In this document: positions 1-29,922 of the stretch, in pieces
Position numbering within the stretch: position 1 is the first letter of the stretch
Layout of the letters: each line of letters begins with the position of its first letter
NCBI GenBank assembly: GCA_000004985.1
Contig: GG738909.1
Origin: Naegleria gruberi
Lineage: Eukaryota
Reading direction: 5' to 3' (one strand)
Length of the DNA: 64,000 nt
Position numbers and translations under genes: made by a program
Notes under the pieces: generated by a model
Told to the model about the DNA's origin: nothing
Database searches by the model: none
The model's input: the letters and a program-made list of their open reading frames with translations, nothing else

Positions 1-669
1 ATGTTGAGAGTTTTGAAACAACAAGTAACTTATAGAAAACAGAAAAGGCTTAAGGAAATTATTTTCAATAGTGGTAAGGATAGATTGGAGATTTTGAAGA
101 TTTGTCAAAAGTATGCTGGACAGAGTAATATTTTGGCTGGATTTGTGGTTTTGAATTTTGTACGCTTGTCGAATGTGCAATCTTTGGAAAAATTGGATAT
201 TGATTCATTTGAATTCATGTATGATATTGATCCATTCTTTTATATGAAGTGCAGAGCAGAATATCCTATAGGCTTGTTATTCATTTGTTGTTTTAAATCA
301 AACCAAGTCAAGAATGTTAAAACCAAGAGTTTTACACAAACTAAATGGAAACAAGTTCAGGAAAAAATCTCCTCTGCCACTCTCCAAACCATTTCACGAT
401 TCCTGAGAGAGTTCTACAAGATATCGAAAAGTGCAGCCCTTTCTGTTTCTTTGATTCACTACTATCAAATGCCTTACAAAATATTAGATGGTCAATACCT
501 TACTGCTCATGAATACTTTCAACAAATCAATTCTGGAACTGTACCAACCGATGAAAATATCCAAAAATTCCTCCAATCTCAAATGTATCATTTCCTTACT
601 GAATACTATGAGAAATTCAAATTAATTGTATCTTCCAAAAAGACAATTTCATATTCCACAACAAACTAA
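1..669 (+). CDS. 3' part of a hypothetical protein. The CDS is 5'-truncated by the window edge, and no family was recognised.
   Basis: 222-aa ORF running from position 1 to a TAA stop at 667-669 with coding-like composition; no motif recognised by eye. Confidence 0.35.
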   Translation: MLRVLKQQVTYRKQKRLKEIIFNSGKDRLEILKICQKYAGQSNILAGFVVLNFVRLSNVQSLEKLDIDSFEFMYDIDPFFYMKCRAEYPIGLLFICCFKSNQVKNVKTKSFTQTKWKQVQEKISSATLQTISRFLREFYKISKSAALSVSLIHYYQMPYKILDGQYLTAHEYFQQINSGTVPTDENIQKFLQSQMYHFLTEYYEKFKLIVSSKKTISYSTTN

Positions 670-3683: not shown

Positions 3684-4835
3684 ATGGGAAGCGCAATCTC
3701 TCATCAACCGACAAGTAAGGAAGATAAGAAGATTAAAAAGAAGGTTAAAAAGAAGAAACAAAAGGATGTAAGTATTTTACTTTTGGAAATTTGGAAAATC
3801 ATAATTAAATAGCTTCAAAAATCATTAGAAGCCTCACTTGGAAATCTTGTTTCACCCGAGGAAATTACTCAATTTTTTAATTTATATTCATCTCCGAAAC
3901 TATTGGAGGAATGTTTCTTTGATTTTGAAACATTATATGAAAAGCTATTGGATAATAATGGAGAGGTGAGAAAACTCAAAGTTAATCTAGCTGTTATCAA
4001 TATTCAAAAGTGGTGTGAGAGTCGATTAAAAACGAGACTTGTTGCCAATGTATTACGAGTTACAGAGAGAAAGAAATTGGGATTTGGTTTGGTTCATGTT
4101 GCAATTCTGTTGGGACAATACATTATTCATTGGTTTGATGACGGATTGGTTCATCTGACTCCTATTAAATCCTCACATCCAAATCTTGCTGTTGAAGTTG
4201 GAGAGCTGGATATTGAAGAAAAAAAGGATCAGGAGAAGATTAAACAATTATGCTTTGTGATTTCAGAATATAACACCAAGATGGTGTATAATAATAGGAA
4301 TTGTAATTGTCATCATTTTGTTAGAGATTGCATCAGTGCATTGGATTTGAATTTCTCTTCAATAATGAAAGGACAACTTGGAAATTATCTAAGGAGAATA
4401 AGAAATGGAAAATTACTTACAGAAAGAGAATTCTGTAATCCTATCACTCAAGAAAGAGTGCTGTTTAATACTCACAAACAATTAGATGAATATGTGATCG
4501 ATCTGTTAACAAAACACCCATCTTTCAAAGAAGAGCATCCCTATGATTTTGAGTTATTGAAAGCGTTTGATAGAGGATTCTGGATGGGACATCTCAAAGA
4601 CAAACATGAAAAACTCAAACAAGCAGAAGGACTTCATTATACGTGGAATGAAATATTTCTTCCTCTCATCAAACAAGAAGAGAAAGAGGAAATTGAAAAA
4701 CTTCCTGATGTTGAGGAAACTGCTGAAACTGAAACAATTGTATGCTCTTCTTTTGTGCATTCCATAATTTTTCATGAAAATTATGTCTGTCCATTTGGAG
4801 ATCCACATACTGTTGGATGCTTTTTAGATGTCTAA
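3684..4835 (+). CDS. N-myristoylated PPPDE/DeSI-like putative cysteine peptidase with a C-terminal CPFGDP module (paralogue P1). Exons: 3684..3767 and 3813..4835.
   Basis: The first exon starts at an ATG (MGSAISHQPTSKEDKKIKKK..., an MGxxxS myristoylation consensus) and ends at a GTAAGT donor at 3768. A 45-bp intron ends in TAG at 3812. The second exon is in frame with track ORF 3903..4835. It carries the motifs HVAILLGQYIIHWFDDG and NNRNCNCHHF, in the His...NCNHF arrangement typical of PPPDE/DeSI papain-like peptidases. Total length 1107 nt (368 aa). Confidence 0.65.
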
Positions 4836-11027: not shown

Positions 11028-13293
11028 TTAATATTTAACCTTCTTATTTGGAGGTGCTAATTGGTTATTTCTTTGAGGAGGATCATGGTGATGCCTATTG
11101 TCACGATGATAATTATTGGAATGACCTGAACCAGTTGAGCCATGATGTGAGCTACTAGAGTGGTGATGTGATGATTGGTGATGGTGGTGACTATTATGAT
11201 GTGAGCTACCATTATGGTGAGAGGAGCTAGTGTTCGAATGATGACTGCTATGGTGTGACGATTGATGATGGTGAGAGGGATTATAGGAATGTCTGTTACC
11301 ATTACTACTACCAAATGGTGGATGAGAGGATGATGTAGATGAAACACCATAGCTCTGATTAATATTGTGTGGCAACTGTTGGACACTGGTAGAACCTGGT
11401 AATTGATGTGAAGGTGCATTTGGTTTGTTATCACCCTTCTTTCTTGTAAGGAATTCATTAGTAGCTGTTGAAGGAAGATTTTTGAGTTTGATATTGGTTG
11501 TGGAACCCTTTTCCCAGAACCAGTCGTGATTTAAGCATTCATTGGTTGTTAATCGTTTGGCAGGATTAAGCACAAGAAGCTTATCAAGTAAATCTAAAAC
11601 CTTCTTTGAGCATGATTTCAAGTTTGCAAATCTTTCCAAGAGTCTTCTCTTCTTTGATTCTTTTGGTTTAAGAGCATTCCAATGAGCAAGATTTTCAACC
11701 TCAGCCCATTCTTCCGTTGAAGGAGTACCACACCATTCAAATATCTTTTCAAGCTGATTCACATCATCTGAACCAGGAAAGAGTGCTTTTGGTTCCTTTT
11801 CACCAGCAAAAGGTAAAAGCATTTCACCAAGAATACATCCCACTGACCACATATCAACAGCATAATCATAAGTTGTTGCTCCTAACAGTAATTCAGGTGG
11901 ACGATACCAACGAGTTACAACTCTATTAGTATATTCTTGTTTGTTTTTCTGTGCAATTCTTGATAAACCACTAACAAGTGTCATTGGTCATTGTTTAAAT
12001 GGTAAGGTGTTGAGCGGCAGGAAATAGGAGAGTATGATTTAAAAAAAATAATTGTTGGTTGAAATGGTTCAAACAATATGGATTTGATATTGTTATAATT
12101 AAAAATTGAAATTCAAACTTACAAATCGGCAAGCTTCAAAGTACCATCCTTCTTGATGAGAACATTTGATGCCTTTAAATCTCTGTGCATAATATCTCGA
12201 GAATGGCAGCAATGAAGAGCATTTAGGAGTTGATACATGATAGAACGAAGTTCGTCTTCATCGAATCTGTGTCCTTTAGCATTCAATCCTGCCAAATCAT
12301 GATCCACGTATTCAAAAACCAGGAAGAAGGTACCTTTTGAATTCCACGTAACATCAAGCAATTTTACAATGTTTTTATGTTCAATTTCCTTCAAAATTCT
12401 AATTTCACGAATGGATGTGATTGGAAAACCTTCCTTCTCTCTTTGTGGATCAATTCTAATCTTTTTAATAGCTACCAAACTGTTATCACGCTTATCAACA
12501 GCTTTGAATACTTCACCATAAGTGCCTTCTCCTACTTTACCTTCACTATTGTAGTAGGTATCAATACTAATGTTATTATAAAGTTAGATGATGATGATAA
12601 AACAGATTGAACAGAAAAACGTTAGCGAACATGTTGAGACAAAAAGAACACTTACTCTTTTTCAATATGTTGAAACCTTTCAGCGAGTGGATTTCTAGGA
12701 GGATTTGGTCTAGTAAAGTTATTGTTGTTAGGTTTAATAGTTGTAGTATTATTATTATTATTTTGTACACGTGTTGTTGTATTATCGGTTGGATGAGGCT
12801 TTTGAGTACCATTTAAAACTACTGGAGGAGGTGGAGGATGAGAAGATGAATCCTTTGTTGTTGTAGTTGTTGTTGTTGGTGGAGGAGGTCTTCTTTCTCC
12901 ATTCTGAGTAGATGATGATGTATTATTTGATGATGATGATGTACTATTGTGATGAGTGGTACTATTATTGCTTCTGTGGTGATGATACGAAGAGTTACTA
13001 CTGCTGCTAGCGTTAGAATTACTGCTAGAAGAATGATGTTTACTAGAGTGATAGTTATTTGTAGAATTACCACCTGATGATGTAGATCCATTTGCAGAGG
13101 AGTTATAGTTATTATAATTACTTCTTCCACCACTGTGTCGTCTCTCTCGGTTATCTACATCGTCTCGAGACCTTCTATCATTATAGTCACCATGATAATT
13201 TCTTCTGGAGTGATTGCTCTCCTTATTGTTGTGATCATCAAAAGTGCTTCTGCCTCTATCCTCTTCCATTTGCAATGATTTGTTATTGTTCAT
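11028..13293 (-). CDS. Cyclin-dependent kinase of the transcriptional CDK9/11/12 class, with an RS/low-complexity N-terminus and a His-rich C-terminal tail. Exons: 12656..13293, 12123..12566 and 11028..11970.
   Basis: Exon 1 (ATG at 13293, MNNNKSLQMEEDRG...) ends ...IEK GA|GTAAGT. Exon 2 begins after an AG at about 12567 (DIDTYYNSEGKVGEGTYGEVFKAVDK...PITSIREIRILKEIEHKNIV...HRDLKASNVLIKKDGTLKLAD(F)). Its donor is TT|GTAAGT at 12122, and a 152-bp intron ends in TTAG at 11971. Joining the exons reconstitutes the DFG motif (ADFGLSR), followed by VTRWYRPPELLLG...DMWSVGCILGEM. The total of 2025 nt is in frame. The 12656 boundary is +/-1 because of a T-run discrepancy. Confidence 0.85.
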
Positions 13294-15057: not shown

Positions 15058-17499
15058 TTAGCTCCAAACTTCTTTCAAATATCTGCCTTCTGATTGCCAT
15101 TGTTGAACAACTTTCTTTGCTTCTTCTGATGAATAACCACATTCTTCTTCTATAATTTGATGAAGTACTCTGTTAACTTGTGTAGCCATACCTTGAGCAT
15201 CACCACAAACATATAAACAACCCTTCTTCATAATCATAATTTCAGCAATGTTAGATGAATATTCTTTGAGATAATCTTGAACATAGCTGCCTCCATACCA
15301 AACACCTCCTCCAGAGTTTGCTTCTCTACTACAAGCAACAAGTAAATTCAAGTTTACAAAACTTTCAGTTTCAAAATCTCTCAAATCATCACGATATAAA
15401 AAGTCTGATCTAATACTTCTACATCCAAAGAAGAGCCAGTTAGTACCATCAGATTGCTTCTTATCAAGTTGACATTCACGATGTTGCAAGAAAGATCTGA
15501 ATGGAACAACACCAGTACCTGGACCAATCATGATAATTGGAGTATTCAATGATTTTGGAAGTTTGAATGATGGAGATGGTTTGATAAATACTGGAATGTT
15601 GACTTGTTCTTCACTAGACCAGAACTTCTTTGCCTTATTTTGTAACCAGTGAGTACAACATCCAACACGAGTTGTACGGTGTGGAGGTGGAGTTTCGAAT
15701 TTTACAACACTGAAAGCAATATGTACTTCATCAGGGTGTTTGATTGGAGAGGATGAAATTGAGTAGAAACGTGGTTGAAGAGGTGACATTTCTTGTAACA
15801 AGTGATTCAATGGTGGTTTACATGATGGATACCAGCACAAAATGTCATATAGATTAGCTCTTTGCTTTACAATCTGGGTATTATACATATTGGTATCAAA
15901 AGTCAATTTTAACAATGCTGACTTTTCCAAAAAGTTGGTACAGTATTTGGCTAACATTTGGAGCATTGGAATAGTAACAGGTGACATGATATCTACGCGC
16001 TTAGTAAAGATTGTTCTCAATCTAATAGCTTCATCTTCACCAGCCAAGAAATGATTTGGGAATAAACACTTCTTTGATTCATCAATGCACTTGATAGAAA
16101 TCAAGTCATTTTCTCTGAGAGGTTCACTTTGAATTCCCTTCTTTCCATTTGGAACTTCATAGTGTTTCAATGAGCCAATTTCTTTCAACTTTTCCAAGAG
16201 AGCATCAACTTGGTCTTGGTCGTTTTCACAGAAAACACCCAATGAATCACCTGGCTCATATTTGAATGTGGCATCATCACTGATTGGAGCAGAGTTGATA
16301 TCAAATTCCAAGTGGAGAACTTGCTTAGAGGATTCAGTTGTGGTAAGGTAACGAGCACCATGAACGGCTGCAGAGAAAACACTAGGACATTCTGGAGCTT
16401 TCTTTTCGTTTGATTCTTCGTTTGACTCCTCGTCACAAACAGCTTCACAACAGTCTCCATACATACTCTTCAATCTATTGTTGTAATAGGTCATGTTATC
16501 AACTGGTTTGAACTTGTTATCGTTTTCTAAACGAATGATGGTCAAGTATTGATTAGCTGATGATTGAGAAGCAGAAACAAGTGAAGATAGAGCATCTAAT
16601 TGTTGTAATCCCCCAGCAGCAGAAAGCTTTCTAATTGGGGTGACATCCGTTGGCTCAGTATTTCCATTGTGTGAAGATGAAGTAATGGAGGAGCGGCCAG
16701 CACCACTCATATGATTATTATTTGGTAAATTGGATTCTTGCTTTTCTGATACAGGAGAAGGAAGGGTGGTTGGAATTGTAGGATTAACAGGGGTTGGATT
16801 GGATGGTTGAGGGATCCCTTGAGGGATACTTTGAGCACTAGATGGCTCAGAAACAGGTGGTTCAGCAATAGGATTTGCAACAGGAATATTTTCAACAACA
16901 GTAGATGTTGTTTGAGGAGTAGCGAGTGAAGCATAAATCTTTCTTAATGATTGGAATGTTTGTGCAATGAAAGGCTCTACAGCAACTTCTAAACCTACAA
17001 CTTCATCAGCTTCACCTCTATTTGAAAATCTATCAGCTCCCAATTCAGTTAATCTCTTATCAATATTTCTTGCAGCATTACAAAACATATCATAATTACT
17101 ATCACCTAAACCAAGAATAGTGTAGGAGAGATTAGAGAAAAAGTTTGCTGGTGTTGATTTTAACTTGATGAAACGATAAAAGTTATCACCATTTTGTGGG
17201 ACATCACCATTTCCTGTTGTTGAACAAATAATGATCATATTAGCTTTAGAATCCAAAATATGACCATTGGTTGTAGTTGTAGTGTTATCCATAGCTTGCA
17301 AATTATTTGAACTTGGTGATTGTTTTAAAGTTTTAGCACGATCACGAAGCTTAAAATTGACTGAAAATTCGTTTAAAGAGAGGAGTTGGGTATCTTTGGC
17401 AAATTGTTGGTCCACACATTCCTTGAAAATACGGGTTGCAATTGCTTTAGAATTACCAGTCTCCGATCCATAACAAATCAACAAGGGTTGAGATGCCAT
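15058..17499 (-). CDS. Diflavin NADPH oxidoreductase, most like methionine synthase reductase (MTRR); CPR family
   Basis: 813-aa uninterrupted ORF from ATG 17499..17497. The flavodoxin-like start is LICYGSETGNS. The segments TTGNGDVPQNGDNFY and YTILGLGDSNYDMFCNAARNIDKRLTELGADRF closely match MTRR. A long S/T/P-rich inter-domain linker is MTRR-like. The FAD/NADPH domain ends YVCGDAQGMA...GRYLKEVWS, the CPR/MTRR C-terminal signature. Confidence 0.85.
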   Translation of the reverse strand: MASQPLLICYGSETGNSKAIATRIFKECVDQQFAKDTQLLSLNEFSVNFKLRDRAKTLKQSPSSNNLQAMDNTTTTTNGHILDSKANMIIICSTTGNGDVPQNGDNFYRFIKLKSTPANFFSNLSYTILGLGDSNYDMFCNAARNIDKRLTELGADRFSNRGEADEVVGLEVAVEPFIAQTFQSLRKIYASLATPQTTSTVVENIPVANPIAEPPVSEPSSAQSIPQGIPQPSNPTPVNPTIPTTLPSPVSEKQESNLPNNNHMSGAGRSSITSSSHNGNTEPTDVTPIRKLSAAGGLQQLDALSSLVSASQSSANQYLTIIRLENDNKFKPVDNMTYYNNRLKSMYGDCCEAVCDEESNEESNEKKAPECPSVFSAAVHGARYLTTTESSKQVLHLEFDINSAPISDDATFKYEPGDSLGVFCENDQDQVDALLEKLKEIGSLKHYEVPNGKKGIQSEPLRENDLISIKCIDESKKCLFPNHFLAGEDEAIRLRTIFTKRVDIMSPVTIPMLQMLAKYCTNFLEKSALLKLTFDTNMYNTQIVKQRANLYDILCWYPSCKPPLNHLLQEMSPLQPRFYSISSSPIKHPDEVHIAFSVVKFETPPPHRTTRVGCCTHWLQNKAKKFWSSEEQVNIPVFIKPSPSFKLPKSLNTPIIMIGPGTGVVPFRSFLQHRECQLDKKQSDGTNWLFFGCRSIRSDFLYRDDLRDFETESFVNLNLLVACSREANSGGGVWYGGSYVQDYLKEYSSNIAEIMIMKKGCLYVCGDAQGMATQVNRVLHQIIEEECGYSSEEAKKVVQQWQSEGRYLKEVWS

Positions 17500-21580: not shown

Positions 21581-22468
21581 TTAAACAAAAAGTGGCGATT
21601 TATAGTCATGTATTTGAAGTAAATCTCTCTCGTGGGAGTTTTGAGAGGCGTTCAGTTTGCTTTTAAATGCTTTAACATTGCTTTGGAATGACGATGGAGA
21701 TTTACAAAAAATGTTTGGAGAACTGAGACTTGATTCAAAGACTGGTTTCAGTTTTGTTCTGTTTGGACTAAGTGTTTCAACCTTAACTGCAGATGGTCTC
21801 TTTTTACAATGTGCAGGAGGAGAATTAACTCTAAAGTCAAGGAAGGAAGCAGAGTAGGACTTGGCAAATTGTGGTCTTGGTGGTGTTGATGGGGAAGATG
21901 GAATTGAATTGCTATTGGTAACTGTTATGGAATAATGACTTGTTGTTTCAGCATGGTCAATGGAATTAAAATCCACAGAGTGAATTTGGAAAGGTGAAGA
22001 AGGCATTGAAATGGATTTTGGTGTTTTACATTCTGTAATGTTGTTTTTAGCCTCTGCAGCCAAGCTTGATGATCGTCTTCTTTTAAGATTATCATAATTA
22101 TCAAATGAAGCCAAAAGAGAAAGTGGAATTCTGGTTCCTTTTTTCAACATTTCTTTTCTATGCGAAAGATCAGGACCACAGTTATCTTTAGAGTTGATTT
22201 CAAAATGCTTTGGTGGAGAGGATTGTATGAAAGTGTCATTCTTATGGTGGTAGGAAGAAGTATTTGGTGAGGTGGGGCTCATTAAACCTCCATGAATGGC
22301 ATTAAGGCGCTTATGATGTGATCTAGGGGTTGTTACTGGTGAAGAACAAGTTGAAGAGGTATTGGAATCAACTTGTGGTAATTCATCATTCTTCCATAGA
22401 GAATGAAATCTTGGAGGACTAGTCGATCCGATGATCTCTGCTTGGAAATATAATGTCGATTGATCCAT
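21581..22468 (-). CDS. Hypothetical S/T/P-rich protein, 295 aa
   Basis: ORF from ATG 22468..22466 ending at 21581; low-complexity composition and no recognised domain. Confidence 0.4.
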   Translation of the reverse strand: MDQSTLYFQAEIIGSTSPPRFHSLWKNDELPQVDSNTSSTCSSPVTTPRSHHKRLNAIHGGLMSPTSPNTSSYHHKNDTFIQSSPPKHFEINSKDNCGPDLSHRKEMLKKGTRIPLSLLASFDNYDNLKRRRSSSLAAEAKNNITECKTPKSISMPSSPFQIHSVDFNSIDHAETTSHYSITVTNSNSIPSSPSTPPRPQFAKSYSASFLDFRVNSPPAHCKKRPSAVKVETLSPNRTKLKPVFESSLSSPNIFCKSPSSFQSNVKAFKSKLNASQNSHERDLLQIHDYKSPLFV

Positions 22469-23207: not shown

Positions 23208-26095
23208 CTAAACATGAATAACTATAGAATTGGGAGAATTAACATTATCTGAATTATCATTTTGTTCCTGTTGTGATGATTCCAATATTCTTGAGGAGAG
23301 AGAAGACGAAATGTTCAATGGAGCAACTCTACTTGTTGGTAACGTTGGGGAACTGTCATTGAAGGAATTGCTCGATCCTATTATTGAGTTACCTCTCGTT
23401 GATGAAATTAGAGAAGCTGAGGAAAGAATGGATGGAGAATCCAATGATGATTCAATACTACTTGATAACTCTGAATTGTCATGACAAGAGCTCAGTAAGG
23501 TCTGATCATTGGATAAATCATATTGAAGTGAAAATCGAAGGAATGTATCTTTTAAGAGCATGGATTTTACAACCTTTTCTATGCTTATGAAAAGATCTAT
23601 TTGTCCGTAACCTTCTGCAATGTTTTTAACTTCCTTTTCTCTGACTTTTTGAGAAATGTTGATTGCATAAGGTGAATTATCACACAAATACTTGTTGAGA
23701 ATCTCTGCTTGCTTCTTTGCTCTATCTGATGTTTTCTTAATCGACTTGTATAGTAATATATCTTCCAAAAAGAGAATATTCTCTTCAGAACATTCCTTTT
23801 CACAGAATTTCTTTCATCATGTTCAGATTTTACAAATTAATAAACAGGACTTACCTTAAACATTTCTCTTCCGTTCGAATTCATCATTACCCTTTCAAAT
23901 TCCATACCCAACTTGAAATCTTGCATTCGTTGCTCTTGAACTTTCACGGCTTGTCTCAGTTCCACTTGTTCACTCATATTTCTGGCCACAATAACATAAA
24001 CCTGATGAATATTTCCCTCGTCCAACATGATATCCACTTTACTGGTCGATACACTCACTGGAATTTCTGAGCCAAGATTGGAGAGTATGGTGGTGTCCCA
24101 TCTAGACTTGGTCTCTGCCATATTTTCCAAATATTTCAGAATTTCATCATTGAGATGATTTGGATTTTCAATGGAATTGTATAGAAACGCCATATCACTA
24201 CCATTATTTTGTGAATCCATCAGAGGTGCTTTCTGTAAATACTGGCTCACCAAATTGAATTGTTTCTTTAAAATTCTACTCTCAAATATTGTATTGAAAT
24301 TCACAATTTGGGCGGTCTTTGAATCGACAGAGAATATGAAATCATCGATAGAGTTCATGATAACTCTAGATTTTTGCTCAGATAGTGATGTCTTTTCCAA
24401 TAATCGTTGCATGAGTTCATTGTCCTCACTGAGAATGGTCTGGGTGGCATCGAGGGCATCCAACATGTTATTGACATCTTCACATAGCATTCCCAATTCA
24501 TCAGAACCAACATTTGGAACTCTTTCCTTGATATTTGTCGAATTGGTTATAATTCTTACAGCATTTGTCAATTTTAACAATCTTTTCAACACTACAATTT
24601 CCAAAAATATAATTAATCCAATAGAGAGGAGAATAATCATTACTGTCATTACAGACCAAGTAATTAGAAATGATGTAATACCAAGAGTATAGACCTCTCT
24701 ATCAAAATCTGTTCTTATAACCATCGATCCATCACTAATCAAATCATAATACTCTTGAAATATTGAAATCTTACTTCCGTATAGAATGGCCTTATTGGAA
24801 CAGAGTCTATTCTCGAATAATGGTAGATTGAGATCATTCTCATCAACAGAAAATTGTTGAATAAACTGTCCAGTATTATTCGACCACAAACTCTGTGAAG
24901 AAACTCCCTCAATTAAAGTTTGAGTCCAGGATGAGGTTTTTTCTGAAATTATTTTCGAAGTCTGCTGACTAGTCAACTCTGTTTTTGATTTATCACTTGA
25001 CAGAGACTTGGCAAATAAATATCTGTCTCTACTACTCCTCAAATTATATGGTGTTAAACAATATTGACTTCTGTCTGACATGTCAGTAAAAAATTCTCTA
25101 GTTTGATATCTTCCAAATATCATAATTCCATAAGTCTTTTGATAATCTGTATCTTGAATTGGCATTGCAGATAATAGCAATAAATTTAACAGTTTAGTCT
25201 GAGTGGTAATGTTGAAATTTTGATTCAATCCTGAAACTGTTATATTCGAAACAATTAAATCAAATAAACTCTCTGAAGGTGAATAAAATCCAACATTTCT
25301 AGTTGATGGATTTGACATACCATCCATCAAAACTCTTCCTATTGAGCTAGCTTGAAGATTTATCAAATCATTTGGAATCTTATCTAGTCTATATCCATCA
25401 AAACATCCCAATCCACTCAAATAAGTTCCATTCATATAATAAATCAATGCAAAATTAACTCTACTTGTCAATTGATATTGACAATGCAAATAATAATTTA
25501 AAAATTGATTTGCCAAAACAGTTGCATTAGAATTCGTATTCGTTACAACATCAATTGCATCTTTGAATGCACCATATTCGAATAGACGTGATGTTAGAAA
25601 GTAAAAATCATCAAATAAAGTTCTACTTGTTCGTTTGGCTGATTCCATGGCCATTGAATTTTCCACACTTAAAAAGGAAATATTAAAGGCTGTCAATAAA
25701 ATTGCTAAACAAGTTGCCATCAAGAGGAGAAATAATAAGATTAGAATAATTGTTATTTTAAATCGAAGACTTTTGTGAATTAAAACTGATTGACTGTCAG
25801 GTGTCTGAGCTGAGGAGGATGGATCCATGACATTTAAATTATTGTCATCATGATTATCTAAATGTATGGATTTTTCTATTAATTCTTCCGAGAATTGAGT
25901 TAATTTTTTAGAATTTCCAAATAATTCAAAACTATTCGAATCGTTTTCATTAGAATATTTTATATGATGAACATTTTTAATTCTTTTCAAAGAAAGTAAA
26001 TTATTCTTGAAGGTTTTTCGAAACTTCGTACTGTTAACTGTTGTTGGAAGAATTGTTTCTTGTTGGTTCTTTTTACTTCCTTGTTGGTTTGACAT
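23208..26095 (-). CDS. Membrane receptor with two TM helices, a Cache-like extracellular domain and a cytoplasmic RGS domain. Exons: 23855..26095 and 23208..23810.
   Basis: ATG at 26095 (MSNQQGSKK...). TM1 is IILILLFLLLMATCLAILLTAF, followed by an ectodomain of about 330 aa with Cache-like strands (YMNGTYLSG..., ...LISDGSMVIRTDFDREVYTLGITS). TM2 is WSVMTVMIILLSIGLIIFLEIVVL, followed by a HAMP-like helix. Exon 1 ends ...EMFK|GTAAGT and a 44-bp intron ends in AAAG. Exon 2 starts KFCEKECSEENILFLEDILLYKSIKKTSDRAKKQAEILNKYLCDNSPYAINISQKVRE, a canonical RGS core. Both exons are in frame (2241 + 603 nt). Confidence 0.75.
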
Positions 26096-26267: not shown

Positions 26268-28919
26268 TTACTTCTTATTCTTCTTCTTTGGATCAACATT
26301 TGATTTTTGATCTTTCTTTCCACTATTTGTATCAACTTTTAAATGTTTAGTTTGTGGAGCAGATGATTCACTTTTTTCAACATCTGATTGTGGAATTGGA
26401 GTATTTGGTTCGTCCATATTAATGTGATTTCTACTAGTTCTCAAACTACTTGCAATCTTTTCATAAATCTTCAAATCCTTAGAAGAAACTGAAGGTGGAA
26501 TCTTCTTTAAGGCAATCTTGAAATGTTCTCTCGTTACAATCATTTCACCAATTGCCTTATTTGGAGTATTAGTATTAGATCTTCCTTTCAATAAATGTTC
26601 TTTCAAACATGATGTTGCAGCTTCTCTAACCAAAGCAGCCAAATCAGCGCCTGAAAAGTTTTCACACAATTTGGCAATTTCTTCCAAGTTTACATCTGAA
26701 GCAAGAGGTGTCTTTCTAGCAATGGTTTTCAAGACACTGATACGTTCTTGTTCGTTTGGTAATTTAACGTAGAGAAGTTTGTCCAAACGACCTGGACGTA
26801 ACATGGCTGAATCGATCATGTCAGGTCTGTTGGTTGCTGCAATGACAAATACCATTCCTCTCGATTCTAAACCATCCATGGCAGTCAATAATTGATTTAC
26901 AACACGTTCAGAACTTTGTGAGCTAGATTCATTATCTCTCTTTGGACACAAGGCATCCATTTCATCAAAGAAAATTACACAAGGTGATGAAGCAGCAGCA
27001 CGACTGAAAACTTGTCTGACAGCTCTTTCAGATTCACCAACATATTTGTTCAAAAGTTCAGGTCCCTTAATTGAAATAAAGTTAGCACCACTGTCGTTTG
27101 AAATGGCCTTAGCCAACAATGTCTTACCACAACCAGGTGGACCATAAAGTAAAACACCAGCTGGAGCTGTAAGTCCAAGTTTCTTATAATGATCTGGATT
27201 CTTAATTGGTTCCATAATGGCCATTCTCAATTCTTCACGAACTTCTTCCAAAGCACCAATATCATCCCAAGTAACATTTGGAACTGTTGCAAAACCTTCA
27301 CGTTTAGCACTTGGTTGAACCTTCTTAATGGCCTTTTCAAAATCGTTAAATGTTACATAAAGATTGGCTAATTGTTGTTCTGTTAATGGTTCCTTCATGG
27401 AACGAAGAGTTTCAGAAATGATATTTCTACGCTTAATATCCTCTGGTGAATCATGTGAAACAGTTGAAGTGACAGGAGTAGTAGGTGAAGCAGCTGTATC
27501 AACTGCCATTGGATCATCCCCTTGTTGTTGCTCAGTTCCAAAGACAATATCACCAAATATTCTGTGAATTGCAGCAATAGCAGCTTCATTAACAAGAGCT
27601 TTCAAATCAGCACCAACATAACCAGGAGTATTGTGTGCAATGGTTTTAAAATCAAAAGTATCATGTCCACCATCCAATTTTAATTTTCTAGTGAGAATGT
27701 TGAGAATTTTCATTCTGGCCTTCTCATCTGGAATACCAAGTGAAATTTCTCTATCAAATCTTCCAGCTCTTCTCAAAGCATCATCTAATGAATCAGGTCT
27801 ATTTGTGGCACCAATTATAATTACTGTTTTACCTCCAGTTTTTTCCAATGTTAAATCATCCAAACAAGTAATCAATTGAGCAACGATACGTTTTTCCATT
27901 TCCTTTGAAGCATTATCTCTCTTACTTAAAATTGCATCAATTTCGTCAATGAAAATAATACTTGGTGCATTGGAAATTGCATCACGGAAAATTTGACGAA
28001 TCTTGGCCTCAGATTCACCACTCATACCACTAACAATTTCAGGAGCTGAAACTTTAAGGAATGGAATTTGTAATTCACCAGCAATTGCATTAGCCAACAT
28101 GGTTTTACCACAACCAGGTGGACCATGAAGTAAAATACCACGTGGTGGTTCAACACCCAATGTTGAGTAAATTTCTGGATGCAAAATTGGATATTCAATC
28201 AATTCACGAATATCTTGTAAAATATTATCAATACCTCCAATATCACTAAATCTAATATTTGGTGTTTCAACAATAATCTTTGGTTTTTTGGAGGAGCCAC
28301 TACTTGGATCCGATTTGGTCTTTTTCTGAGGTGGAGCTTCTTTCACTTCCTTTGATGATGAACTGGATGAAGCAGTATTCGAATTGGATGAAGCAGAAGT
28401 ATTATTAGAGGAAGAAGATTGAGAATTGGAAGGAGTAGTATTGGTAGTAGTTGAAGAAGAATTTGGTTGTTCTCTCTTTCTCTTCAAGTCATTTTCATTA
28501 TTTTCAAGAGAAATGTTAGTTGATTGTTCCTTATAGACATTTTGTAATTGGTAATTCATTGAAGTCTTTTCATTATTAATAACTTCCTTGAGTTTGGCAA
28601 CTTTTTGCATTCTCTTTTCTAATTCTTCTTTTGAAATTTGTTCTTCTTCCGATGATGATGATTCATCTTCTCCGAGAAGTCTATCAATTGCTACTAGACA
28701 AATTTCTTTAAAATCCAATAAAGGAATTTGTTTATAATCCTTTTCATGTGATTTTCTCAAGTATGTACAGAGTGGTAATATTTCCTTTTCCCCAATTGAT
28801 GTTTTATCATGTGATTCCATGTACTCTTCAATACGTTCAAGAAGAGCACTCTCATCAATTTTAGGTCCTTTAGAAGATGCTTTACGATTATTATTGTTAT
28901 GTTTTTGTTGTTTACCCAT
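26268..28919 (-). CDS. Nuclear VCP-like / Rix7-type AAA+ ATPase with two AAA domains (ribosome-biogenesis ATPase)
   Basis: ATG at 28919..28917 ([11 protein letters not shown]...). The N-terminus is basic and acidic and NLS-like. Two Walker A motifs GPPGCGKT are present, each followed by Walker B DE(I/M)D and second-region-of-homology segments (ATNRPD...[11 protein letters not shown] and ATNRPDMID...LRPGRLDK). Confidence 0.9.
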
Positions 28920-29064
28920 TTTTTTTGAGTTCAATTATTACATTGAAAGTTTAATCTTTAAATAGCTATTATTGCGATAAGGCGATTGTTGAATATTATG
29001 TACAGTTTGATGAGAACAAATAGTAAATATTAATTATTATTAAATAATATATTTTTTTACTTGT

Positions 29065-29922
29065 TTACAACTCGTGTGAAGTGGTGGTCAATTGTTCGTT
29101 AATCTTCAAGTTTTGTTGCAAGAGGTGTGATAAATAGACAATCATTTGCAAGTCCTTGTTGTGTTGACCAATAGTCTTATCAAAGTCATCAACTGGCTTC
29201 AAGAGTTGGAATGAAGACAACAAAAAGTGGTACAATTCAAAGTTCTTCTTGTTCGAAGATTGCAAATACTTGCCAATTTCTTCCAAATCCTTCTTCAATT
29301 GTTGGATAGTTTGTTGTAAAACAATATTGCTTTGCAAATACTTGTTGGTTTGGAGGTAGTTCATTGACAACTTTTCATTATCAGTCATAATGTATTCAAC
29401 TCTAACTTGTTCAAACAATGTACCAACAACTTTGTCCTTGAATTTCAATTCTCTATTCATGTATCCTTTGAAATCTATTAATCTTCCGGTGACTGTTTCG
29501 TTACCTTGTGGAACATTGATAGTACAATCAAGGACGAGTGGGCTCTTCATGATGTTATCACTGAAAGATTGATAGATTTGTTTATCAACTGTTGTTTTCG
29601 ATGTTGAAATGGTGTAGAAACCTATAAGTGTATCATTAGAGTAGACACGATGATGAAGGCTTTCCATCTTTTTGTAATAGGAAACATCAATATCGGTAGT
29701 ATTTTCAGTAAATTTCAAAGGAATAGTATTCTTAATTTCAAAGTATCCTCCTTCTCTGAACTCTCCAAATAAACATCCAATAATATCAGTCTTTGAATTA
29801 AAAGCAACTCTTTGATAATGATCCAAAATATTCAACATTACCAAAGGATGGAGTTTATAAGTAGAAGTGGTTGTACCATTGTTTTTCTCGTTGATGAGAA
29901 GACAGCTTGTGCTTCCTTGCAT
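29065..29922 (-). CDS. MPN (Mov34/JAMM-minus) domain protein of the CSN6 / eIF3f / Rpn8 class
   Basis: ATG 29922..29920. The segment LHPLVMLNILDHYQR resembles the N-terminal MPN strand. LIGFYTIS replaces the metal-binding JAMM motif, indicating an MPN-minus protein. Length 285 aa. Confidence 0.7.
   Translation of the reverse strand: MQGSTSCLLINEKNNGTTTSTYKLHPLVMLNILDHYQRVAFNSKTDIIGCLFGEFREGGYFEIKNTIPLKFTENTTDIDVSYYKKMESLHHRVYSNDTLIGFYTISTSKTTVDKQIYQSFSDNIMKSPLVLDCTINVPQGNETVTGRLIDFKGYMNRELKFKDKVVGTLFEQVRVEYIMTDNEKLSMNYLQTNKYLQSNIVLQQTIQQLKKDLEEIGKYLQSSNKKNFELYHFLLSSFQLLKPVDDFDKTIGQHNKDLQMIVYLSHLLQQNLKINEQLTTTSHEL

Follow-up and report, generated by a model that had tools for sequence, protein, structure and literature searches.

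A 64,000-nucleotide stretch of DNA (contig GG738909.1; hereafter the window) carries on its minus strand, at 26095..23208, a gene whose product combines a divergent CHASE4 ectodomain, a HAMP domain and a PAS domain with an RGS domain in one polypeptide. The window is AT-rich eukaryotic DNA with a G+C content of ~32%, and is assigned to Naegleria gruberi because an NCBI "RGS domain-containing protein" of that species (P0001) shares 99% identity with the spliced product. The first ATG is at 26095 and the stop codon, TAG, at 23208-23210; removal of a 44-nt intron leaves a single reading frame of 947 aa. The order of domains is a predicted cytoplasmic N-terminus, a first transmembrane helix (TM1), a 333-aa ectodomain, a second transmembrane helix (TM2), HAMP, PAS, RGS and a Ser-rich tail. 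We consider it fairly probable that the protein is a homodimeric, two-pass receptor of the plasma membrane, with its N-terminus inside, that would act as a ligand-regulated GTPase-activating protein (GAP) for heterotrimeric Gα. The gene and its product are laid out as follows; all features are on the minus strand, and the structural model cited is an AlphaFold2 (AF2) model with its predicted local distance difference test score (pLDDT).

23855..26095 (minus): coding exon 1, 2241 nt, in frame, aa 1-747, from open reading frame (ORF) and translation; N-terminal tail through PAS, and the 15 residues with which the RGS match opens.
23811..23854 (minus): spliceosomal intron, GTAAGTCCTGTTTATTAATTTGTAAAATCTGAACATGATGAAAG, 44 nt, phase 0, GTAAGT...GAAAG; five codons in lies an in-frame TAA.
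23208..23810 (minus): coding exon 2, aa 748-947 plus TAG; remainder of RGS and the Ser-rich tail.
25757..26095 (minus): N-terminal cytoplasmic region, aa 1-113; poorly conserved in the orthologue alignment, with Lys/Arg just before TM1.
25676..25756 (minus): TM1, ~aa 114-140; Kyte-Doolittle 19-residue windows up to 3.28.
24677..25675 (minus): ectodomain, aa 141-473; divergent CHASE4 with a predicted double PAS-like (dCache-type) fold.
24593..24676 (minus): TM2, ~aa 474-501; hydropathy up to 3.08, conserved in orthologues, leading directly into HAMP.
24449..24592 (minus): HAMP (Pfam PF00672), aa 502-549; motif DELGxL...NxML.
23978..24373 (minus): predicted cytoplasmic PAS, ~aa 575-706; a disordered insert of variable length lies at ~aa 624-644.
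23882..23974 (minus): predicted long helix that joins the final strand of PAS to helix 1 of RGS, ~aa 708-738 (AF2 helix 209-239 of the modelled fragment, pLDDT ~90).
23532..23899 (minus): RGS (Pfam PF00615), aa 733-840, interrupted by the intron.
23211..23531 (minus): C-terminal tail, aa 841-947; Ser-rich, of low complexity and not conserved.

The RGS domain of the spliced protein scores 65.2 bits (E 9.3e-18) in Pfam, where the cutoff is 23.9, in keeping with the canonical RGS core proposed in the preliminary description of this DNA. Its best solved relatives are of the R4/R7 type (RGS5, RGS6, RGS4, RGS16, and RGS7), and a profile of the family matches R4/R7-type RGS proteins with E values from 7e-15 (RGS2) to 1e-12. 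Six residues of RGS4, S85, E87, N88, N128, D163, and R167, are those through which RGS4, in its complex with Giα1 (PDB 1agr), touches the switch regions of Gα. Their equivalents, read from a HMMER alignment to RGS4 (1ezt, 1agr) and counted among 25 family members, are all present:

RGS4 S85: S755 here, kept in 18 of 25.
RGS4 E87: E757 here, kept in 23 of 25.
RGS4 N88: N758 here, kept in 22 of 25.
RGS4 N128: N798 here, kept in 24 of 25.
RGS4 D163: D835 here, kept in 21 of 25.
RGS4 R167: R839 here, kept in 23 of 25.

In scaffold-type RGS-homology domains the residues of the catalytic interface are typically lost. The pattern found here would be expected of an active GAP rather than of such a domain, and it is from these conserved contact residues that we infer GAP activity. 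It is unlikely, in our judgment, that the domain serves instead as a module for binding or scaffolding Gα-GTP, as in GRK2, RGS-RhoGEF and the sorting nexins, in which case the protein would be recruited by active Gα or report on it, and the sensor would have some different function, for instance in clustering or adhesion. The family profile does match the RGS-homology domains of GRK and SNX25 weakly, and a Naegleria RGS-RhoGEF is known to bind Gα as an effector (PMC9283941). The best matches, however, are to the GAP-active R4/R7 type, over the range of E values given above; the catalytic-interface residues are conserved, including the equivalent of the key Asn128 in all but one of the 25 members; and no further output domain follows RGS, only the non-conserved Ser-rich tail.

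At the input end, the hydropathy profile has only two hydrophobic segments, both strong, as the earlier claim of two transmembrane helices required, and Lys/Arg flanks lie on the predicted cytoplasmic sides (before TM1 and after TM2). The predicted structure of the ectodomain between them resembles a solved CHASE4 domain; further down the fold matches come DctB, LuxQ and the ligand-binding domains of dCache chemoreceptors, and then the CHASE domain of Arabidopsis AHK4. A Pfam scan of the spliced protein gave no match to a Cache or dCache family (PF02743 and related) at E<=1, and a partial match to CHASE4 (PF05228) that covers 45 residues and stays below threshold (18.3 bits against 26.2). The CHASE4 cutoff is passed by 20 of 30 scanned relatives, with scores of 27-53 bits and, as a rule, matches across nearly the whole profile. 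We assign the sensor to CHASE4 because both the hidden Markov model (HMM) scores of the paralogs and the fit of the predicted structure point to that family, which has been placed in the Cache clan by HHpred (PMC4822843). The ectodomain had been called Cache-like, and a scan for dCache_1/Cache and RGS and a structure prediction had been proposed as checks. The scan returned RGS and no Cache family, and the prediction returned the double PAS-like fold; "Cache-like" is thus correct at the level of clan and fold, and an assignment to dCache_1/Cache is rejected in favor of CHASE4.

Two properties of the ectodomain fit an extracellular location. It has exactly four cysteines (aa 205, 231, 346, and 432; codons in window 24800..25060 and 25480..25482). 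Among 33 family sequences Cys346 never varies and Cys432 hardly does; C205 and C231 are shared by all four close orthologues and are frequent in the family at large. The ectodomain thus probably has two disulfides, and the conserved Cys pair together with five N-X-S/T sequons is what extracellular exposure would lead one to expect. Long stretches, such as AMPIQDTDY and YYLHCQYQL, are invariant among orthologues. When an ectodomain profile built from four orthologues was searched against 1.84 billion representative proteins (E<=1e-3), it matched only 34; no clearly prokaryotic protein was among them, and the search found no relative outside Naegleria-like eukaryotic contigs. Since no clearly prokaryotic protein matched, the sensor, bacterial-type though it is, appears to have resided long in this lineage and to have diverged there. 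Nearly all of the 34 matches carry the same arrangement, which suggests that selection acts on CHASE4-HAMP-PAS-RGS as a whole.

The region between TM2 and RGS is organized like the transmitter of a bacterial sensor. What had been described as a HAMP-like helix after TM2 is a HAMP domain by Pfam (28 bits, the cutoff being 25), with the motif DELGML...NNML and invariant E533, N542, and L545; the AF2 model gives it the helix-connector-helix form, and the family profile matches the Af1503 HAMP structure. In the AF2 model of the fragment aa 500-747 (pLDDT 81.5), HAMP helix 1 (fragment residues 2-19) and the connector are followed by a 50-residue helix from residue 34, a PAS core of five strands that holds the disordered insert, and a 31-residue helix that runs into RGS helix 1. 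The predicted PAS fold, a five-stranded antiparallel sheet with flanking helices, is matched by Foldseek to the PAS structures of WalK, VicK, LOV and FixL with a probability of 1.00 (E 6e-8 to 2e-4), and the HAMP-PAS fold of the model resembles the sensor-kinase transmitters of WalK, VicK, LOV-HK, YF1, and FixL. Pfam found no PAS match in this protein; PAS or PAS_9 is above cutoff in the paralogs P0018 (PAS_9, 34 bits against 27), P0033 and P0035, and the family profile matches the PAS structures 3mjq and 7r5n at E about 3e-3. The model and the paralogs thus place between HAMP and RGS a PAS domain that the preliminary description overlooked, and its statement that the sensor is wired directly to RGS does not hold, since a long helix, PAS and a second long helix separate HAMP from RGS. 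The insert within PAS (window 24164..24226, aa 624-644) has a pLDDT of <50 and varies in length, with 0 to ~25 extra residues among orthologues and ~60 in one paralog.

Bacterial sensors of the TM1-sensor-TM2-HAMP-PAS type are parallel homodimers in which ligand displaces TM2, and HAMP and coiled-coil linkers relay the displacement to the output. In the receptor GAP that we propose, an extracellular ligand would bind the double PAS-like CHASE4 ectodomain, and the resulting movement of TM2 would pass through HAMP, the long signaling helix, PAS and the second long helix. This last helix is predicted to be continuous with RGS helix 1, and its movement would alter the availability or activity of RGS toward Gα-GTP at the membrane; the simplest idea for gating is that the Gα-binding face would be sterically occluded in one signaling state. 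The Gα proteins of Naegleria provide a setting for such control. In N. fowleri Gα5 and Gα7, nucleotide exchange outpaces GTP hydrolysis, so that both are self-activating, and the RGS domains of Naegleria seven-transmembrane (7TM)-RGS proteins speed their GTP hydrolysis (PMC9283941). Because GTP loading is spontaneous in some Naegleria Gα, a GAP under the control of a ligand would itself be the receptor step. A broader proposal, which we advance tentatively and hold at somewhat less than an even chance, is that Heterolobosea have a second class of receptor-GAP, not dependent on G-protein-coupled receptors (GPCRs), in which a bacterially inherited CHASE4-HAMP-PAS module senses extracellular chemicals and directly gates RGS on self-activating Gα.

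The stimulus could also be sensed inside the cell. The cytoplasmic PAS would then be the true sensor, for instance of redox state, a metabolite or light, and CHASE4 a remnant with a structural or dimerizing role; we regard this as distinctly unlikely. The PAS fold is well supported, its nearest structures are the cofactor-binding LOV, FixL and NifL domains, and essentially all family members keep it. Against these points stand the high conservation of the ectodomain, with the two invariant stretches named above and a Cys pair conserved throughout the family, which implies strong selection on the ectodomain. The PAS domain, as read from its sequence, is without the LOV cysteine motif NCRFL, it carries a disordered insert of variable length, and many bacterial HAMP-PAS transmitters use PAS as a relay. 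Sensing by PAS and sensing by the ectodomain are not mutually exclusive.

That all these domains belong to one gene depends on the 44-nt intron, whose support is comparative, across genomes and by a family HMM. Across the junction the spliced protein reads ...NSNGREMFK followed by KFCEKECSEENILFLEDI..., and the Pfam match to RGS begins 15 residues upstream of the junction and spans it. The N. lovaniensis orthologue is interrupted at the identical codon boundary by 79 nt (...EKFK, GTAAGT...TTAAG, AFCEKECSEEN). An orthologue on an ENA metagenome contig (L001) is interrupted at the identical position by 36 nt (...ERFR, GTAAGT...GAAAG, QFCKNEYSEEN); because this interruption contains an in-frame TGA, the metagenome gene caller split the orthologue in two, a sensor of 717 aa and an "RGS" ORF of 125 aa. 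Of the three lengths, 44, 36, and 79, two cannot be divided by three, and the frame is restored only if they are spliced out. The orthologue on a second contig (L002; P0004) is without the RGS intron, and its HAMP-PAS-RGS is a single ORF in genomic DNA beside a convergent gene. The family HMM, built from 24 relatives with this gene left out, gives 397.9 bits to the 44-nt splice, against 244 to exon 1 alone and 140 to exon 2 alone. The acceptor used is the first AG downstream of the donor. The intron at 23811..23854 and the recovery of RGS by splicing it out, both claimed beforehand, are thus supported by a position conserved in three genomes, by the intron-less orthologue and by the HMM. The comparisons indicate that the fusion is a single gene and no artefact of the gene model, because the intron-less orthologue has HAMP-PAS-RGS in one ORF and ~25 relatives combine CHASE4, HAMP, PAS and RGS. 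It is very unlikely that there are two adjacent genes or a decaying one, with CHASE4-HAMP-PAS ending at the in-intron TAA, RGS a separate ORF or pseudogene and the 44 nt a coincidence: prokaryote-style callers do split the L001 orthologue in this way, but the GT...AG interruption recurs at one codon boundary in three genomes in lengths that need splicing, the L002 orthologue is uninterrupted, exon 2 alone misses the start of RGS and contains no ATG upstream of its TTG at 23768, and either exon alone scores far below the spliced product.

The 44-nt intron is also supported as better than that of the public model. P0001 (1166 aa) places the acceptor 15 nt further downstream, which excludes 23796..23810 and deletes the conserved KFCEK of RGS helix 1. 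This 59-nt splice scores 374.3 bits with the family HMM, 23.6 bits less than the 44-nt splice, and orthologues retain FC[EK][KN]E; it was rejected. The public model has a second intron, from ~23397 across ~960 nt into the minus-strand ORF 21581..22468, which we consider doubtful. That ORF is Ser/Pro-rich and has its own ATG; it gave no Pfam match, and no counterpart was found adjoining the orthologues. Orthologues stop 10-40 residues past RGS, and three of them end soon after it, two of these abutting convergent genes. The public model is therefore probably a fusion with a neighboring ORF. Intron positions in this gene shift fast among Naegleria-like species. In N. lovaniensis (L003) two extra introns lie in the ectodomain, at 3718..3819 and 3973..4067, and are absent in N. 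gruberi; the L002 species, although it is without the RGS intron, has an intron after the first ectodomain helix (about 243..285).

A number of considerations weigh against a ligand-regulated receptor GAP. The CHASE4 and PAS sequence matches of this protein are both sub-threshold in Pfam, so that the two assignments rest on paralogs and predicted structure, and the nearest solved CHASE4 is only 9% identical to the ectodomain. Some domains of the RGS fold bind Gα as effectors or scaffolds and not as GAPs. RGS domains act as monomers, and it is not obvious how one could be gated by a helical transmitter that is dimeric. Finally, a survey of GPCR systems reports that N. gruberi has 229 RGS proteins, many of them in architectures specific to lineages and often with transmembrane segments fused to RGS (PMC3971589), and in so large a repertoire individual members may be redundant or degenerate.

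The architecture is common to ~30 related sequence clusters. In a Pfam scan of 30 of the 34 matches to the ectodomain profile, most had HAMP, several had PAS or PAS_9 above threshold, and ~25 ended in RGS. N. gruberi has at least seven members (this gene, D2VMK1, D2W421, D2W2R3, D2W3W3, D2W0L7, and D2W0H3). The other named members are FDP41_001999 of N. fowleri, two genes each in N. lovaniensis and Willaertia magna, and "RGS21" of Acrasis kona; all named members are Heterolobosea. Unnamed members lie on metagenome contigs, and those inspected are eukaryote-like, with 34-39% GC, neighbors such as ORC5, CENP-T and Arf, and intron-split genes. The coupling, described at first as unusual, is so across life; within Heterolobosea it belongs to a family of many paralogs. 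A survey of Cache domains reported a Cache-clan domain in one Naegleria protein only, an adenylate cyclase (PMC4822843). The N. gruberi paralogs were probably overlooked there since the CHASE4 scores of several of them are no higher than the Pfam cutoff.

Two relatives (P0022 and P0025) end in a class III nucleotide cyclase instead of RGS, which suggests that outputs are swapped on a shared sensor module, a generic input with exchangeable outputs. Such sister genes, in which CHASE4, transmembrane helix and HAMP are fused to a class III adenylate/guanylate cyclase that replaces PAS-RGS, are found at L004 1731..5970 and L005 258..1974. One of the two contigs has a divergent tandem pair beside an ORC5-like gene and a zf-CCHC gene, and is taken to be eukaryotic because the ORC5-like gene adjoins the pair; on the other the cyclase is split across ORFs. 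A further eukaryote-like metagenome contig (L006, 587..9752) carries P0018 (PAS-RGS), a second gene for an RGS protein in divergent orientation, genes for an Arf-like GTPase and a PAS-histidine kinase, and next to the latter a response-regulator ORF, a dense mix of bacterial-type and eukaryotic signaling genes within 9 kb.

The surroundings of the gene in the window are ordinary, made up of housekeeping genes unrelated to it. Neighboring ORFs encode an ATPase with two AAA domains of the NVL/Cdc48 type (26268..28934), a JAB/MPN protein (29065..29922), a flavodoxin-FAD-NAD reductase resembling cytochrome P450 reductase (15058..17499) and a fragment of a protein kinase (11028..11984). No G-protein gene was found among the neighboring ORFs of the window, and no second copy or tandem paralog of the gene was found within it. 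Recent bacterial transfer or contamination was rejected as the origin of the gene, given its spliceosomal intron, the ordinary eukaryotic neighbors, the lack of a clearly prokaryotic match to the ectodomain profile, and the presence of the cyclase-output relatives on eukaryote-like contigs.

The sequence itself is not new: the gene is already in NCBI and UniProt as an uncharacterized RGS/HAMP domain-containing protein. No relevant paper joining HAMP or CHASE4 with RGS was found in the searchable literature, which excluded the survey likeliest to show the architecture (Anantharaman et al., 2011; Gene 475:63). The study of N. fowleri G proteins refers to another 79 RGS proteins but does not describe this class (PMC9283941). 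Receptor-linked RGS is an accepted input step for self-activating Gα, in plants and, by experiment, in N. fowleri, so far only in the form of 7TM-RGS fusions. If our reading is correct, the family would add a mechanistically different receptor-GAP, derived from a bacterial two-pass sensor and its transmitter. It would be a natural chimera showing that HAMP/PAS helical signaling, which serves kinases and cyclases in bacteria, can control a eukaryotic G-protein regulator, and Naegleria, including the pathogen N. fowleri, would gain a family of chemosensors. The chimera is clean and conserved, it lends itself to direct tests, and it raises the questions of how HAMP/PAS helices could control a domain that acts as a monomer, and of what these amoebae sense. 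Its significance is limited in that the function is wholly inferred, RGS and HAMP had already been flagged, and the reported RGS repertoire of N. gruberi (PMC3971589) is very large and combinatorially diverse.

Comparison with known systems brings out what is shared and what is particular to this protein. The 7TM-RGS proteins (Arabidopsis AtRGS1; N. fowleri, PMC9283941) are likewise membrane-bound and receptor-like, with an N-terminal sensor and a C-terminal RGS/GAP output in one polypeptide, and they likewise fit organisms with self-activating Gα, in which a regulated GAP is the input step. They differ in having seven transmembrane helices in a GPCR-like bundle; this protein has only two hydrophobic segments, and not a seven-helix bundle, before RGS, and combines them with a CHASE4 sensor and a bacterial-type HAMP-PAS transmitter; it may resemble the 7TM-RGS proteins in function but does not belong to their family. 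Bacterial CHASE4-TM-HAMP(-PAS) sensors share its input side and feed GGDEF/EAL, histidine-kinase or cyclase outputs, whereas the output here is the eukaryotic RGS domain. Compared with bacterial CHASE4 (e.g., the iron-sensitive diguanylate cyclase/phosphodiesterase, PDB 8wct), the ectodomain is ~120 residues longer at ~9% identity, and the gene is eukaryotic, with a spliceosomal intron. In the plant CHASE-histidine kinase AHK4 and the Naegleria Cache-adenylate cyclase (PMC4822843) both sensor and output are of bacterial type, whereas here a bacterial-type input is joined to a eukaryote-specific regulator of G proteins. On the output side, the R4/R7-type RGS proteins (RGS4, RGS5, RGS6/7) are the nearest solved sequences and share the Gα-contact residues. 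The RGS proteins of animals, which are soluble or held by a lipid anchor, are regulated through DEP/GGL domains or N-terminal helices; in this protein a transmembrane sensor would take that place.

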